Shown: positions 54,166-58,407 of the stretch, in pieces
How the letters are laid out: each line of letters begins with the position of its first letter
Numbering within the stretch: position 1 is the stretch's first letter
Source: Escherichia coli
Lineage (GTDB): Bacteria > Pseudomonadota > Gammaproteobacteria > Enterobacterales > Enterobacteriaceae
Direction: 5' to 3' (one strand)
Length of the DNA stretch: 64,000 nt
Assembly: GCF_045037415.1 (NCBI RefSeq)
Contig: NZ_CP173438.1
Program-made: the position numbers and the translations under genes
Notes under the pieces: generated by a model
Seen by the model: the letters and a program-made list of their open reading frames with translations, nothing else
Told to the model about the DNA's origin: nothing
Databases searched by the model: none

Positions 54166-56163
54166 ATGAGTGAAAATGATACAATCCCAAAGAAGTCTAC
54201 AAGTCAGATTAACAAAGCGGTATTCTTTACATCTGCTTTGCTAATTTTCCTTCTTGTCGCCTTTGCCGCCGTATTCCCGGATGTCGCCGACAAAAATTTT
54301 AAACTACTTCAGCAACAAATCTTCACGAATGCCAGCTGGTTCTACATCCTTGCTGTGGCCCTGATTTTACTGAGTGTCACGTTCCTTGGACTCTCACGCT
54401 ACGGTGATATCAAGCTGGGCCCGGACCATGCGCAGCCTGATTTCAGCTACCACTCCTGGTTTGCGATGCTTTTTTCGGCAGGGATGGGGATCGGCCTGAT
54501 GTTCTTTGGCGTTGCCGAACCTGTAATGCATTATCTTTCGCCACCCGTTGGCACTCCAGAAACCGTTGCGGCAGCTAAGGAAGCAATGCGTCTGACCTTT
54601 TTCCACTGGGGACTGCACGCATGGGCAATTTATGCCATTGTGGCGCTGATTCTGGCGTTCTTCAGTTACCGTCACGGTCTGCCTTTAACTCTGCGCTCCG
54701 CACTCTATCCCATTATTGGCGATCGCATATACGGACCTGTAGGACATGCGGTTGATATTTTCGCTGTTATAGGCACGGTCTTTGGCGTTGCGACATCACT
54801 GGGTTACGGTGTTTTGCAGGTGAATGCCGGTTTGAACCATCTTTTCGGGGTGCCCATCAATGAAACGGTGCAGGTAATTCTGATCGTGGTCATCACGGGG
54901 TTAGCGACGATTTCAGTGGTGTCCGGTCTGGATAAGGGAATACGTATCCTGTCTGAACTCAATCTGGGTCTGGCTTTGTTGCTCCTGGCGCTGGTCCTGT
55001 GTCTGGGACCAACCGTGCTTCTGCTGAAGTCATTTGTGGAAAATACGGGCGGTTATCTTTCGGAACTGGTGAGTAAAACGTTCAACCTTTACGCGTATGA
55101 GCCCAAGTCGAGCAACTGGCTGGGGGGCTGGACATTACTGTACTGGGGATGGTGGCTTTCATGGTCGCCGTTTGTGGGGATGTTCATCGCACGGGTCTCC
55201 CGCGGGCGAACCATTCGCGAGTTTGTCACCGGCGTGCTGTTTGTTCCCGCGGGTTTTACGCTAATGTGGATGACGGTGTTTGGTAACAGCGCGATCTATC
55301 TCATTATGAACCAGGGGGCCACAGGCCTCGCCAATACTGTTCAGCAGGATGTGGCGCTGGCCCTGTTTAATTTCCTGGAGCATTTCCCGTTCTCTTCTGT
55401 GCTGTCATTCATTGCAATGGCGATGGTCATCGTCTTCTTTGTAACGTCTGCTGATTCGGGGGCAATGGTTGTGGATACTCTGGCATCAGGTGGAGTGGCA
55501 AACACACCCGTCTGGCAGCGAATATTCTGGGCCTCGCTCATGGGCATTGTTGCAATTGCGCTTCTCCTTGCCGGAGGGCTAAGTGCGCTGCAAACGGTGA
55601 CAATAGCGAGTGCATTGCCCTTCTCAGTGATCTTACTAATATCTATATACGGACTTTTAAAAGCTTTGCGCCGGGATTTGACCAAGCGTGAAAGCCTGAG
55701 CATGGCGACAATTGCTCCTACGGCTGCACGTAACCCAATTCCTTGGCAGAGAAGGTTACGCAATATCGCGTATCTGCCGAAGCGATCTCTTGTGAAACGT
55801 TTTATGGACGACGTTATCCAGCCCGCCATGACGCTGGTTCAGGAGGAACTGAACAAGCAGGGGACGATAAGCCACATTAGTGATGCAGTCGACGATCGTA
55901 TTCGTCTTGAAGTCGATTTGGGCAACGAGCTGAATTTTATATATGAAGTGAGGCTTCGCGGGTATATCTCACCGACCTTCGCGCTCGCCGCAATGGATAA
56001 TGATGAGCAGCAGACTGAACAACATCGATATTATCGCGCTGAGGTTTATCTCAAAGAAGGCGGTCAAAATTATGATGTGATGGGCTGGAACCAGGAACAG
56101 CTGATTAATGACATACTGGACCAGTACGAAAAACACCTGCACTTCCTGCACCTGGTTCGTTAA
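54166..56163 (+). CDS. BCCT-family (betaine/carnitine/choline) transporter
   Basis: About 665 aa, 12-TM profile with BCCT signature region (WTLLYWGWWLSWSPFVGMFIARVSRGRTIRE). Confidence 0.85.
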   Translation: MSENDTIPKKSTSQINKAVFFTSALLIFLLVAFAAVFPDVADKNFKLLQQQIFTNASWFYILAVALILLSVTFLGLSRYGDIKLGPDHAQPDFSYHSWFAMLFSAGMGIGLMFFGVAEPVMHYLSPPVGTPETVAAAKEAMRLTFFHWGLHAWAIYAIVALILAFFSYRHGLPLTLRSALYPIIGDRIYGPVGHAVDIFAVIGTVFGVATSLGYGVLQVNAGLNHLFGVPINETVQVILIVVITGLATISVVSGLDKGIRILSELNLGLALLLLALVLCLGPTVLLLKSFVENTGGYLSELVSKTFNLYAYEPKSSNWLGGWTLLYWGWWLSWSPFVGMFIARVSRGRTIREFVTGVLFVPAGFTLMWMTVFGNSAIYLIMNQGATGLANTVQQDVALALFNFLEHFPFSSVLSFIAMAMVIVFFVTSADSGAMVVDTLASGGVANTPVWQRIFWASLMGIVAIALLLAGGLSALQTVTIASALPFSVILLISIYGLLKALRRDLTKRESLSMATIAPTAARNPIPWQRRLRNIAYLPKRSLVKRFMDDVIQPAMTLVQEELNKQGTISHISDAVDDRIRLEVDLGNELNFIYEVRLRGYISPTFALAAMDNDEQQTEQHRYYRAEVYLKEGGQNYDVMGWNQEQLINDILDQYEKHLHFLHLVR

Positions 56164-56225
56164 TAGCAACATGCCGTCCTGGGGGCGGCAATTATTATCC
56201 CGGCCGCAATATGAGGGAATGCAGA

Positions 56226-57503
56226 ATGATTTCACGCTGGAAATGGATGCTGAAGCAGACAATTAAAAAACTATGGTTCAGGGCAACGTTATTCGCAATT
56301 GTCGCGATAATAACGGCCCTTTTATCAATTCTTTTTAAATCAATGATACCTGAGTCGGTTTCCGTGAAGGTTGGTGCGGAAGCAGTCGATAACATTCTGA
56401 ACATACTGGCATCGAGTATGCTGGCAGTGACCACATTTTCGCTGAGTATCATGGTCACAGCCTACGGTTCAGCCACTACTAATGTGACTCCCAGAGCTAC
56501 GCGTTTAGTTGTTGAAGACGTCACCACACAAAATGTACTGGCCACCTTCATCGGTTCTTTTCTCTTCAGTCTGGTAGGGATTATTGCCCTCAATATGGGA
56601 GCTTATGGAGAAAGGGGGAGAGTCATTTTATTCATTGTCACACTGGTTGTCATTGCCTTAATCCTCATCACATTGCTTCGCTGGATACAGCATTTGACCT
56701 CTCTGGGGAGGGTTGGTGAGACAACGGCACAAGTAGAACAGGCGGCCATCGAAACATTTATTGCGAGAGCAAGAAATCCCTGTCTCGGCGGATATCCATG
56801 GCTTGAGAACAATGAACAGCCGAAAGGAACAGTTGCAGTTTATCCGAAGAAGATTGGCTATGTTGAATATATTGATATGGTGAAACTTAGCAAGCTGCTG
56901 ACCAATGATCCCCGTCATGTATACCTCGTGGCGCAGCCAGGCAGTTTCATACATCCGTCCATGCCAGTTTTGTACCTGAGTCAGGGCCAGGAGTCGTCAA
57001 TCAACACCGATTTACTTGAGACGATTATTGTCTCGGATGCACGTTCATTTGCTCAGGATCCTCGATTTTGTCTTAGCGTCATGGCCGAAATAGCCTGCCG
57101 GGCCCTTTCCCCTGCAGTGAACGATCCTGGAACCGCCATTGATGTCATTGGCAGAGGTGTTCGTATACTTTCCACTTACGCGCAGAATAAATCTGATGAA
57201 ATAGAAGTGAAATATCCTTCAGTACATGTTGCACCACTTCAGAATAACGATCTACTGGAAGACTTTTTCTCACCTGTCGCGCGCGATGGTGCCAGTATGA
57301 GGGAGATTCAGATAAGAGTCCTTAAAGGACTGTCGATGCTGAGTAAAGGTTGGCCTGAGATATTTGCTGAAGCCGCACATACCCTGGCATTTGAAACATT
57401 AGAGCATGCAACTCATGCTGACCATATAGATTCTGATAGATATCTAATAAAATCAACTTATTATAATTTATTTAGTGGCGAATATTCTAATAAAAAAACA
57501 TAG
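56226..57503 (+). CDS. DUF2254-like membrane protein
   Basis: ORF with N-terminal TM segments and soluble C-terminal domain; family assignment tentative. Confidence 0.65.
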   Translation: MISRWKWMLKQTIKKLWFRATLFAIVAIITALLSILFKSMIPESVSVKVGAEAVDNILNILASSMLAVTTFSLSIMVTAYGSATTNVTPRATRLVVEDVTTQNVLATFIGSFLFSLVGIIALNMGAYGERGRVILFIVTLVVIALILITLLRWIQHLTSLGRVGETTAQVEQAAIETFIARARNPCLGGYPWLENNEQPKGTVAVYPKKIGYVEYIDMVKLSKLLTNDPRHVYLVAQPGSFIHPSMPVLYLSQGQESSINTDLLETIIVSDARSFAQDPRFCLSVMAEIACRALSPAVNDPGTAIDVIGRGVRILSTYAQNKSDEIEVKYPSVHVAPLQNNDLLEDFFSPVARDGASMREIQIRVLKGLSMLSKGWPEIFAEAAHTLAFETLEHATHADHIDSDRYLIKSTYYNLFSGEYSNKKT

Positions 57504-57750
57504 CTGCAGAGCAAGCAATTCGGTTGTTGGCAAGTCAAGGGCAAAGCATTCGCGTGAGAATGGGCGTATGCTTTGTGCCAAAAGCAAACGTTGCTAATTC
57601 TGCACTGTTCAGCGATGGCGCAGTAGCGACAGGCACTGCCACTGTCCAGTCGGCAAAAGCGAACACTTTGCCACTGCGGGGATAAACTGATTGAAGCTCT
57701 CGCGCAAAATCACTTATTCTTTTGCGTTAATAAAATGTAGGAGATGGGTC

Positions 57751-58407
57751 ATGACAGGCGAAAATCGTGGCCGGGGAAGGCCGCGAAAGACAGAAAGTAC
57801 CTATGCAGATACTCGTAATGATCTGATCCGCAGTGGCCTTGAACTGCTGACGCAGAATGGTTTTCTTGCGACGGGAGTCGATGCCATTGTTAAAAATGCC
57901 AATGTCCCTAAAGGCTCATTTTATTACTACTTTAAGAGTAAAGAGGATTATGCTCAGACCGTTCTGAACGCCTATGACAGTTTCTTCGAGCATAAACTCA
58001 AAAAACATCTACATGAATCATCCTGCACACCAATGGTACGTCTGGAAAATTTCATCAATGATGCCTGTGAGGGGATTAAAAAATACAATTTTACCCGCGG
58101 CTGCCTGGTTGGAAATATGATGCAGGAGAGTCCGGGGCTTCCCCAATCCTTCATTAAAGTACTACAGAATATTCTTGAGAGCTGGCAGGCACTTGTTGCG
58201 GCCTGCCTGTCCGACGCGTTATCTTCAGGCGAAATAAGTTCAAATATGAATAATACACAACTGGCGGCTATTTTCTGGAGTGGCTGGGAAGGTGCGGTAA
58301 TGCGTTCCAAACTATATTGTTCTACTGAGCCAGTGTACGACTTCTGGAGCTATTTCAAAACCTCGGTACGCTATCAGTCTTCTCAGGAAGCAACAACTGG
58401 CCAGTAA
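57751..58407 (+). CDS. TetR/AcrR-family transcriptional regulator
   Basis: ATG at 57751 (MTGENRGRGRPRK...); HTH GFLATGVDAIVKNANVPKGSFYYYFKSKEDY. Confidence 0.8.
   Translation: MTGENRGRGRPRKTESTYADTRNDLIRSGLELLTQNGFLATGVDAIVKNANVPKGSFYYYFKSKEDYAQTVLNAYDSFFEHKLKKHLHESSCTPMVRLENFINDACEGIKKYNFTRGCLVGNMMQESPGLPQSFIKVLQNILESWQALVAACLSDALSSGEISSNMNNTQLAAIFWSGWEGAVMRSKLYCSTEPVYDFWSYFKTSVRYQSSQEATTGQ

Follow-up and report, generated by a model that had tools for sequence, protein, structure and literature searches.

Three co-directional genes, encoding a BCCT transporter, a DUF2254 membrane protein and a TetR-family regulator, stand side by side at positions 54166 to 58407 of a 64-kb stretch of Escherichia coli DNA (the window), and the question raised by this locus is whether they form a single functional unit. 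A preliminary description had treated them as one unit adjacent to an insertion sequence (IS), and as a possible module for the uptake of osmolytes or quaternary amines. Our analysis makes it probable that the 4.2-kb stretch is what remains of a short array made up of two independent cargo modules, which was captured beside the fec genes and has been eroded at both ends. What looks like a tidy cluster of three genes in this pandemic E. coli lineage is a mosaic, and recognising it as such helps to avoid an operon annotation that would be plausible but mistaken. The stretch itself is ordinary mosaic accessory DNA, and the family of sites to which its internal junction belongs is of more interest.

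The three genes and the joint between them

The open reading frame (ORF) listing and the RefSeq annotation of strain JJ1887 both place three intact + strand ORFs between an IS600 element and a minus-strand oxidoreductase remnant, as previously described, and the products give full-length Pfam matches. The genes for the BCCT transporter (54166-56163, +, 665 aa; identified by Pfam, NCBIfam and PDB matches), the DUF2254 membrane protein (56226-57503, +, 425 aa; Pfam PF10011) and the TetR-family regulator (57751-58407, +, 218 aa) are separated by gaps of 62 bp and 247 bp. The first ATG is at 54166 and the last stop at 58407, exactly as previously given; with both listed starts given, the ORFs run 54160/54166-56163, 56211/56226-57503 and 57691/57751-58407. 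We refer to the third gene as acuR, from its match to the NCBIfam AcuR model and from the name given to it by the Prokaryotic Genome Annotation Pipeline in many identical genomes. The DNA from 54000 to 59900 is 100% identical to that of chromosomes of E. coli of the ST131 type (sequence type 131), including JJ1887 and O25b:H4, and at least 80% of it was found in 630 of the 5426 complete E. coli genomes that made up our survey set. In K-12-like strains IS911 adjoins fecE and the three genes are absent, in agreement with their earlier placement as IS-adjacent accessory DNA outside the K-12 layout.

The BCCT and DUF2254 genes are a genuine recurrent linked pair. We searched 80 species-representative DUF2254 loci, each with 7-kb flanks, with all four proteins (BCCT, DUF2254, AcuR and the oxidoreductase AcuI), and identified a close BCCT orthologue adjoining DUF2254 in ten of them, all from Enterobacterales; AcuR or AcuI homologues were found within 7 kb of DUF2254 in none of the 80. 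Among the complete E. coli genomes, the pair (at least 80% present) occurs in 1377 of 5426, mostly on chromosomes, and the acuR-containing stretch in only 566-630. Copies of the pair without the TetR gene were identified on IncFIB and IncFII plasmids, on a phage-plasmid-like IncFIB plasmid and in a Rac-like prophage. On many IncF plasmids of E. coli and Klebsiella the homology ends ~77 bp past the DUF2254 stop codon, with no TetR gene after it, and in the Rac-like prophage (E. coli) the 94%-identical copy of the pair is followed by LysR, gamma-glutamylcyclotransferase and MFS genes. A plasmid search with the downstream part of the locus (57504-59920) found acuR always convergent with an intact gene for a 327-aa medium-chain dehydrogenase/reductase (MDR) oxidoreductase, acuI, with no BCCT gene present. 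The proposal of a single three-gene unit is thus upheld for the BCCT-DUF2254 pair, which is linked in many replicons and species, and falls for the TetR gene, which the synteny comparison finds unlinked from the pair and separate on plasmids and prophages.

The joint between these two parts is a 26-bp palindrome, CGTATGCTTT-GTGCCA-AAAGCAAACG (57565-57590, +), of the A type in a family of A and B sites that is described below. The homology switches inside this palindrome: in alignments, the sequence to its left follows the replicons that carry only the BCCT module, and the sequence to its right follows the plasmid that carries only acuR-acuI. Copies of this palindrome were identified on either side of the BCCT module in a plasmid of K. 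huaxiensis and in the Rac context (L003, L088), and on its left side in Kluyvera. It is the only A/B-type match in the window at up to 6 mismatches, with ~0.05 expected per shuffled window. Because the joint is a cargo-boundary palindrome, we regard the adjacency of BCCT-DUF2254 and acuR as cassette stacking, and not as shared function. The palindrome is not obvious as an intrinsic terminator, given its DNA folding z-scores of -0.2 to -2.6 and the absence of a T tract.

The left edge is formed by a complete IS600 of the IS3 family (52791-54056, +), with ends read from the sequence as TGAGGTAGCC... and ...ACACCTCA. Its ORFs (52855-53157 and 53193-54011) contain HTH_Tnp_1 and rve domains and match IS3 transposase, and it is annotated as IS600 in JJ1887. 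We could not find a target-site duplication, the flanks tcc and aca being different, and the block has this single copy only, with none at its right end. Homology to other BCCT contexts begins at 54057, directly after IS600, and the remaining native upstream region of the transporter gene (54057-54165, +, 109 bp) aligns with the plasmid, Rac-prophage and Kluyvera copies, which run ~160 bp farther upstream to an A-type site. By this comparison, IS600 has removed, and taken the place of, the left site and ~160 bp of the BCCT upstream region.

We propose that module 1 (54057-57590) consists of a BetT-type BCCT gene followed by the DUF2254 gene, and that module 2 (57565-58764) is the rest of an acrylate-detoxification pair. 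The transporter of module 1 would be a trimeric proton-coupled importer of choline or a closely related quaternary amine, osmotically activated through its C-terminal domain. A host with betIBA would thereby have a second BetT to supply glycine-betaine synthesis, and the DUF2254 protein that travels with the transporter would probably act with it in ion or osmotic homeostasis. In module 2, acuR would encode an acrylate-responsive TetR repressor and the convergent acuI an NADPH acrylyl-CoA reductase, with only acuR now intact. The two modules would have been joined at the 26-bp palindromic site by cassette stacking, and IS600 would later have taken the left site and the distal upstream region.

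The transporter and its DUF2254 partner

The BCCT protein matches Pfam PF02028 with 658.7 bits over residues 21-506 (profile positions 1-485 of 485), and passes the NCBIfam BetT subfamily model NF007399 (749.7 bits; cutoff 695), while the glycine-betaine, carnitine and other NCBIfam equivalogs give scores that do not reach their cutoffs. Its best solved relative is PDB 8ybq (E = 7.6e-194, residues 9-665 including the C-terminal domain), which by its size and description is the Pseudomonas syringae BetT that forms a domain-swapped trimer, binds choline in a tryptophan prism and is autoinhibited by its C-terminal domain (PMC11323884). The tryptophan-rich motif of transmembrane helix 8 (TM8), WTLLYWGWWLSW, and the BetT-type C-terminal domain are both conserved in the window protein, with alignments reaching the last residue. 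The quaternary-amine uptake suggested in the preliminary description is borne out by the NCBIfam cutoff and by homology: the protein probably imports choline or a similar quaternary amine by proton coupling and under osmotic regulation.

In its full-length BCCT fold, TM8 motif, long C-terminal domain and passing of the subfamily cutoff, the transporter resembles BetT of K-12 (b0314) and of P. syringae (8ybq/8ybr; PMC11323884). Alignment with K-12 BetT along all 665 residues, through the C-terminal LHFLHLVR, nevertheless gives an identity of only 42%, and the transporter is paired with a DUF2254 gene instead of standing beside betIBA; we could not find betI, betB or betA within 9 kb of it in the JJ1887 annotation. 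It also differs from BetT in travelling as plasmid and prophage cargo, and in a Ser that aligns with the Asp proposed to couple protons in the Pseudomonas protein. Since the canonical betTIBA locus is present in 5176 of the 5426 complete E. coli genomes (95%), its role would most simply be that of a second, horizontally acquired BetT-like importer, which could feed the same glycine-betaine pathway. The transporter matches phrog_19848, and both it and the DUF2254 protein match PHROG families almost perfectly, so that an origin of module 1 as prophage cargo fits. The pair is a widely circulating phage and plasmid cargo, and may add capacity for choline or osmolyte uptake. Between its two genes lies a G+C-rich hairpin (56172-56190, +; a stem of 8 pairs that includes 6 G-C, and a weak T tail), of a kind not above the regional chance count, which is a possible partial terminator or mRNA-stability element.

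The DUF2254 protein matches PF10011 with 312.3 bits (profile positions 3-366 of 368), and 4835 DUF2254 relatives were identified at E <= 1e-10 among the scored candidates. A sequence search of PDB returned no solved relative of DUF2254, and the papers found in a literature search on the family give no function for it. In six of the ten linked loci BCCT precedes DUF2254, and in the other four, from Pantoea and Mixta, it follows a DUF2254 gene that is much more divergent (~50%). Because very different DUF2254 lineages, in opposite gene orders, stand beside related BCCT orthologues, the pairing appears to have formed, or re-formed, more than once. Outside the Enterobacterales, DUF2254 often adjoins ClC channels, NhaA or CPA1 Na+/H+ antiporters, SulP and TAXI-TRAP transporters (80 loci, L007-L086). 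These ion- and osmolyte-carrier neighbours, together with the adjacency to BCCT in two gene orders, point weakly to a role of DUF2254 in ion or osmotic homeostasis alongside the transporter, and the family is flagged here as a candidate partner of BetT-type transporters.

Further variation around the pair was observed. BCCT orthologues that are 79-92% identical adjoin DUF2254 genes that are 48-68% identical, in opposite orders (L016, L017, L033 and L081 versus L013 and L014). One E. coli record (P0050) encodes a 524-aa protein in which a DUF2254 fragment (97% identical) is fused to a TrkH-family domain, suggesting a rearrangement that joined the DUF2254 gene to a trkG-like gene. We considered trkG of the K-12 Rac prophage as a cassette of the same slot, and rejected it, as the region has neither an A or B site nor a DUF2254 remnant. 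On IncF plasmids the pair has a recurring accessory neighbourhood: nearby there are repeatedly genes for a SulP transporter with a universal-stress protein, for a PAS methyl-accepting chemotaxis protein and for small serine recombinases (L002 1099-1659 and 8911-9495; L003 12185-14508).

AcuR, the acuI remnant and rival explanations

The TetR protein, whose TetR_N and TetR_C_13 domains give full-length Pfam matches, scores 265.8 bits on the NCBIfam AcuR equivalog NF051457 (cutoff 247), and no more than 27-29 bits on the BetI models, which have cutoffs of 201 and 118. It also matches PDB 3bru (E = 7e-48), which we take to be AcuR of R. sphaeroides. Judged by these matches, the protein is of the AcuR type and is predicted to respond to acrylate. 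The acuR-acuI pair is 97.9% identical on pE76_001, a MOBF plasmid of Enterobacter sp. E76 with no assigned replicon type, and 84% identical on large plasmids of Leclercia, Citrobacter, Klebsiella, Enterobacter, Salmonella and Pantoea, the one typed among them being IncHI1B/IncP. The plasmid oxidoreductases pass the AcuI equivalog (480 and 485 bits; cutoff 440) and are 50% identical to K-12 YhdH.

Pairing of acuR with acuI is widespread (PMC3017554), and in Rhodobacter the two genes sit with the dimethylsulfoniopropionate (DMSP) lyase gene dddL (PMC3017554; PMC3338564). The AcuR model and 3bru matches, the AcuI model matches of the plasmid proteins and their identity to YhdH are points of likeness to the acuR-acuI(-dddL) genes of Rhodobacter sphaeroides (PMC3017554) and to yhdH/acuI of E. 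coli (PMC3338564). In contrast to R. sphaeroides, the enterobacterial genes are convergent and not co-transcribed, and acuR is not leaderless, being preceded by a Shine-Dalgarno sequence. The Rhodobacter AcuR operator, TAATAGAC-N6-GTCTATTA (PMC3017554), has no match in the window at up to 3 mismatches, and acuI is here a dead fragment. This remnant (58465-58764, -) comprises the last ~99 of 327 codons and matches the C-terminus of the intact plasmid protein, with an in-frame stop from a CAG-to-TAG change at 58588-58590. DNA homology of the window to the acuI plasmids ends at 58764, and the 5' two-thirds of the gene (~228 codons) have been deleted together with the promoter and candidate operator. 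Between acuR and the convergent remnant, a hairpin read from the sequence, GGGGC-CGCA-GCCCC (58410-58423), is likely a bidirectional terminator.

Upstream of intact acuI on the plasmids we identified a palindrome, GTCAATAT-ATA-ATATTGAC (L005 2630-2650; L006 7887-7906), that has one change between 84%-identical plasmids in which the surrounding DNA has diverged. Its conservation makes this sequence (GTCAATATATAATATTGAC) a candidate enterobacterial AcuR operator; no match to it was found in the window at up to 3 mismatches, nor in the K-12 yhdH region. A second inverted repeat, CGCAAAA-N10-TTTTGCG (57703-57726, +), lies 25 bp upstream of the acuR ATG and is unique in the window. It is identical in the Enterobacter E76 plasmid and has one mismatch in the 84%-identical Leclercia plasmid, and from this conservation it may be an auto-operator of acuR, with a weak chance test in which 27 of 100 shuffles gave a match. 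We could not find a palindrome common to the regions upstream of acuR and of the BCCT gene. As nothing links AcuR to the BCCT upstream region, it is most likely an orphan regulator, without a target in this locus, that does not control the transporter.

These data bear on the idea that the locus is one functional osmolyte-uptake unit, in which the TetR protein is a ligand-responsive repressor of the transporter and DUF2254 genes, its ligand being the substrate or a related compound. Such a unit would suit the co-directional, contiguous arrangement with its two gaps, the membership of BetI, the natural regulator of betT, in the TetR family, and the ~100% identity of the trio in roughly 600 E. 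coli genomes. Nevertheless, we consider it improbable, as the regulator fails the BetI models and passes that of AcuR, its gene lies near DUF2254 in none of the 80 other-species loci and is elsewhere always paired with acuI, and the BCCT-DUF2254 pair spreads without it. The joint is moreover a recombination-type breakpoint, the two upstream regions have no palindrome in common, and the conservation within E. coli is near-clonal and so carries little functional information. Mobilisation of the three genes by IS600, as a composite transposon or by one-ended transposition, would explain why IS600 abuts the BCCT upstream region, and why the same IS3-family junction occurs in a strain with a different left context (L087). 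With one copy and none at the right end, no target-site duplication, a right end that is a deletion inside acuI, and a BCCT pair that moves between replicons without IS600 and with palindromic sites at its ends, this is very unlikely. Least credible of all is a remnant of DMSP and acrylate catabolism, in which the BCCT protein would import DMSP in the manner of DddT and AcuR would sense the acrylate released. DddT transporters are indeed BCCT members and are among the structural relatives, and Rhodobacter acuR-acuI sits with dddL (PMC3338564), but DddT is distant (232 bits, versus 649 bits for BetT in the structure search), the BetT-specific C-terminal domain is present, no ddd lyase gene was found in the window region or in the plasmid contexts that we inspected, and the two modules are unlinked elsewhere.

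Some observations nevertheless weigh against our preferred reading, that of two eroded modules with a BetT-type choline importer and an orphan AcuR. A Ser of the transporter aligns, by an inferred offset in chain numbering, with D210, the proposed proton-coupling Asp of P. syringae BetT (PMC11323884); K-12 BetT has a Thr at this position, so that an Asp there does not define the BetT subfamily. A trimethylamine transporter (514.8 bits) is likewise among the relatives with solved structures, as are transporters of glycine betaine and DMSP, with BetP and DddT among the more distant ones, and for this reason choline stays a predicted substrate. Within 54057-54165 the scan found no recognisable consensus promoter, and as only this 109-bp remnant is left upstream, the transporter may be silent or driven by IS600. 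AcuR could have gained a new target, the enterobacterial operator candidates having been drawn from conservation only. Finally, acuR is intact in about 570-630 genomes, which may be due to selection or simply to recent clonal spread of ST131-like lineages.

A family of palindromic sites and the surrounding island

The joint palindrome belongs to a family of two related 24-bp palindromic sites, A (GTCCGCTT-TGTGCCAG-AAGCGGAC) and B (with centre TGAGCGAG, from a relaxed scan). At least 1516 plasmid records and 2849 of the 5426 E. coli genomes contain the junction site, and an exact-pattern scan of IMG/VR found at least 120 loci with 122 sites, which fall into 49 left-flank and 71 right-flank sequence clusters. 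Conservation around the site is limited to ~30 bp. Among 143 adjacent site pairs, 90 are A+ then B- (median spacing 1.8 kb), 22 are B- then A+ ~42 bp on and 15 are A+ then A+, with every other arrangement seen at most 5 times. Consecutive brackets are ~16 bp apart. The sites are found both in prophages, lambdoid and P2-like, and on IncF plasmids; examples of sites outside the window are L096 979-3957, L088 5838, 9511 and 12577, L217 4001 and 5599, and L216 5002 and 5993. The bracket is incomplete in the window, where one A site is left, in a chromosomal island outside any recognisable prophage, and where we could not find a B site in the whole 64 kb.

The sequences held between A and B sites differ between replicons. 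In four IncFII plasmids, the same backbone runs up to the site and is then followed by DUF4268, a GFA protein, a radical S-adenosylmethionine (radical-SAM) trio, or BCCT-DUF2254. Cargos that range from 1.2 to 5.8 kb lie between backbone flanks that are identical (tagagctagcgtggtt / A ... B- / tagaaggttagcttgc), with no target duplication. In the Qin prophage of K-12, an A...B- pair brackets ydfV/flxA, and relBE abuts the site from outside the bracket. The Z/fun moron position of phage P2 lies between genes G and FI (PMC3573123, PMC3091744), and an A/B pair exactly brackets the two ORFs of this position. Transporters, acuRI and two morons, flxA and Z/fun, are among the cargos found within brackets. 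A reading of the A...B brackets as transposons was rejected, as there is no target-site duplication and the backbone flanks are constant with differing cargos.

This pattern is consistent with the exchange and stacking of cassettes at two heterospecific sites. We tentatively suggest, as a possibility that we would rate somewhat below even chances, that the 26-bp palindrome belongs to a largely uncharacterised cargo-exchange system, in which inverted heterospecific A/B sites allow whole modules to pass between phages, plasmids and chromosomes, by swapping or by stacking. In such a system, A/B brackets would form tandem arrays, and would occupy fixed slots in prophages of the lambdoid and P2-like kinds and fixed positions on IncF plasmids, and BCCT-DUF2254 and acuR-acuI would be two of the cassettes. 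The agent of exchange would be either some recombinase or phage short-homology recombination that uses the sites as universal arms, and short-homology recombination of the Red/RecET type could explain the A/B pattern without a site-specific recombinase. If the suggestion is true, the A/B palindromes would account for the movement of morons and accessory modules among P2-like phages, lambdoid phages and large Enterobacteriaceae plasmids, and would provide a simple sequence handle for cargo slots.

Comparison with known systems gives partial likenesses. The junction palindrome is of the A/B site family that exactly brackets the Z/fun-region ORFs of P2 and many lambdoid-prophage cargos, a likeness to the moron slots of temperate enterobacterial phages such as that of P2 Z/fun (PMC3573123, PMC3091744); in contrast to those slots, the window site stands in a chromosomal island, as one A site with no B. 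The junction palindrome has the 7-bp core GTGCCAA of the sfx site of the Rci shufflon (PMC4176322), and we considered sfx as the identity of the junction, but the right arm of sfx is not known to match, and sfx is kept only as a lead. Integron cassettes and engineered recombinase-mediated cassette exchange resemble the brackets in their promoter-independent cargo, short imperfect palindromes, tandem arrays and use of one slot for different cargos, and heterospecific-site cassette exchange likewise uses two site types that differ in the central spacer. Unlike integron cassettes, however, the sites have a consensus, YGTCCGCTTTGTGCCAGRAGCGGACRTT, without GTTRRRY/RYYYAAC cores, are much shorter (24-26 bp) and are inverted at the two ends of the cargo. 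No integron integrase is annotated in 44999-68899 of the JJ1887-type locus (L001), and an integron gene cassette was rejected on the lack of these cores and of an integrase annotated nearby. Literature searches by the site sequence found no paper with the core sequence, and those by protein accession and PDB code returned nothing relevant. The title of a 2004 paper by Nilsson, Karlsson and Haggard-Ljungquist suggests that related sites, possibly the same ones, had already been reported from P2-like phages.

We additionally looked for other features of the locus. A PADLOC search for defence genes matched none of the three proteins, and an anti-phage defence role for the cargo was rejected on this basis. 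No relevant RNA element was found with Rfam in 51000-61000, and a promoter and terminator scan of 53900-58900 gave counts that were not above the shuffled expectation.

The gene order in JJ1887, in window coordinates, is fecABCDE, an ISEc52 remnant (52004-52788, -, from the RefSeq annotation), IS600, BCCT, DUF2254 and TetR/AcrR, followed by two tiny minus-strand ORFs annotated as "alcohol dehydrogenase" and hypothetical, an ilvN-like pseudogene, deoR, rbsK, a fucP-like gene, a mutarotase gene and IS66. E. coli AR_0015 has the order fecE-ISEc52'-IS600-BCCT-DUF2254'-IS911, and then the K-12 genes ythA, nanY and nanX (L089; ~50340-56560 in window terms). We regard this as an intermediate arrangement: since DUF2254 is cut by IS911 in AR_0015, the K-12 layout with IS911 beside fecE looks like a further deletion of the island.

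Downstream of the acuI remnant, 58765-59920 is a non-coding patchwork of the neighbouring deoR-rbsK island, belonging to neither module and seen without acuR in other E. coli. A run of TTGTA-like pentamers, gttgtattgtattgtattttattgt, stands at 58782-58806, just past the acuI deletion junction at 58764/58765, and the piece 58765-58875 is also present on its own in the genome of an avian pathogenic E. coli. The ilvN-like fragment (59693-59919, 227 bp), annotated as an acetolactate synthase small-subunit pseudogene, is ~91% identical to chromosomal ilvN and lies directly before deoR, as a stray paralogous piece of a core gene within the island. From 59921 to 64000, a deoR-type repressor gene is divergent from genes for a ribokinase, a fucP-like MFS permease and an aldose 1-epimerase. 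These form an accessory sugar-utilisation cluster, which is followed by IS66 in JJ1887 and which other E. coli have without the BCCT/acuR block.

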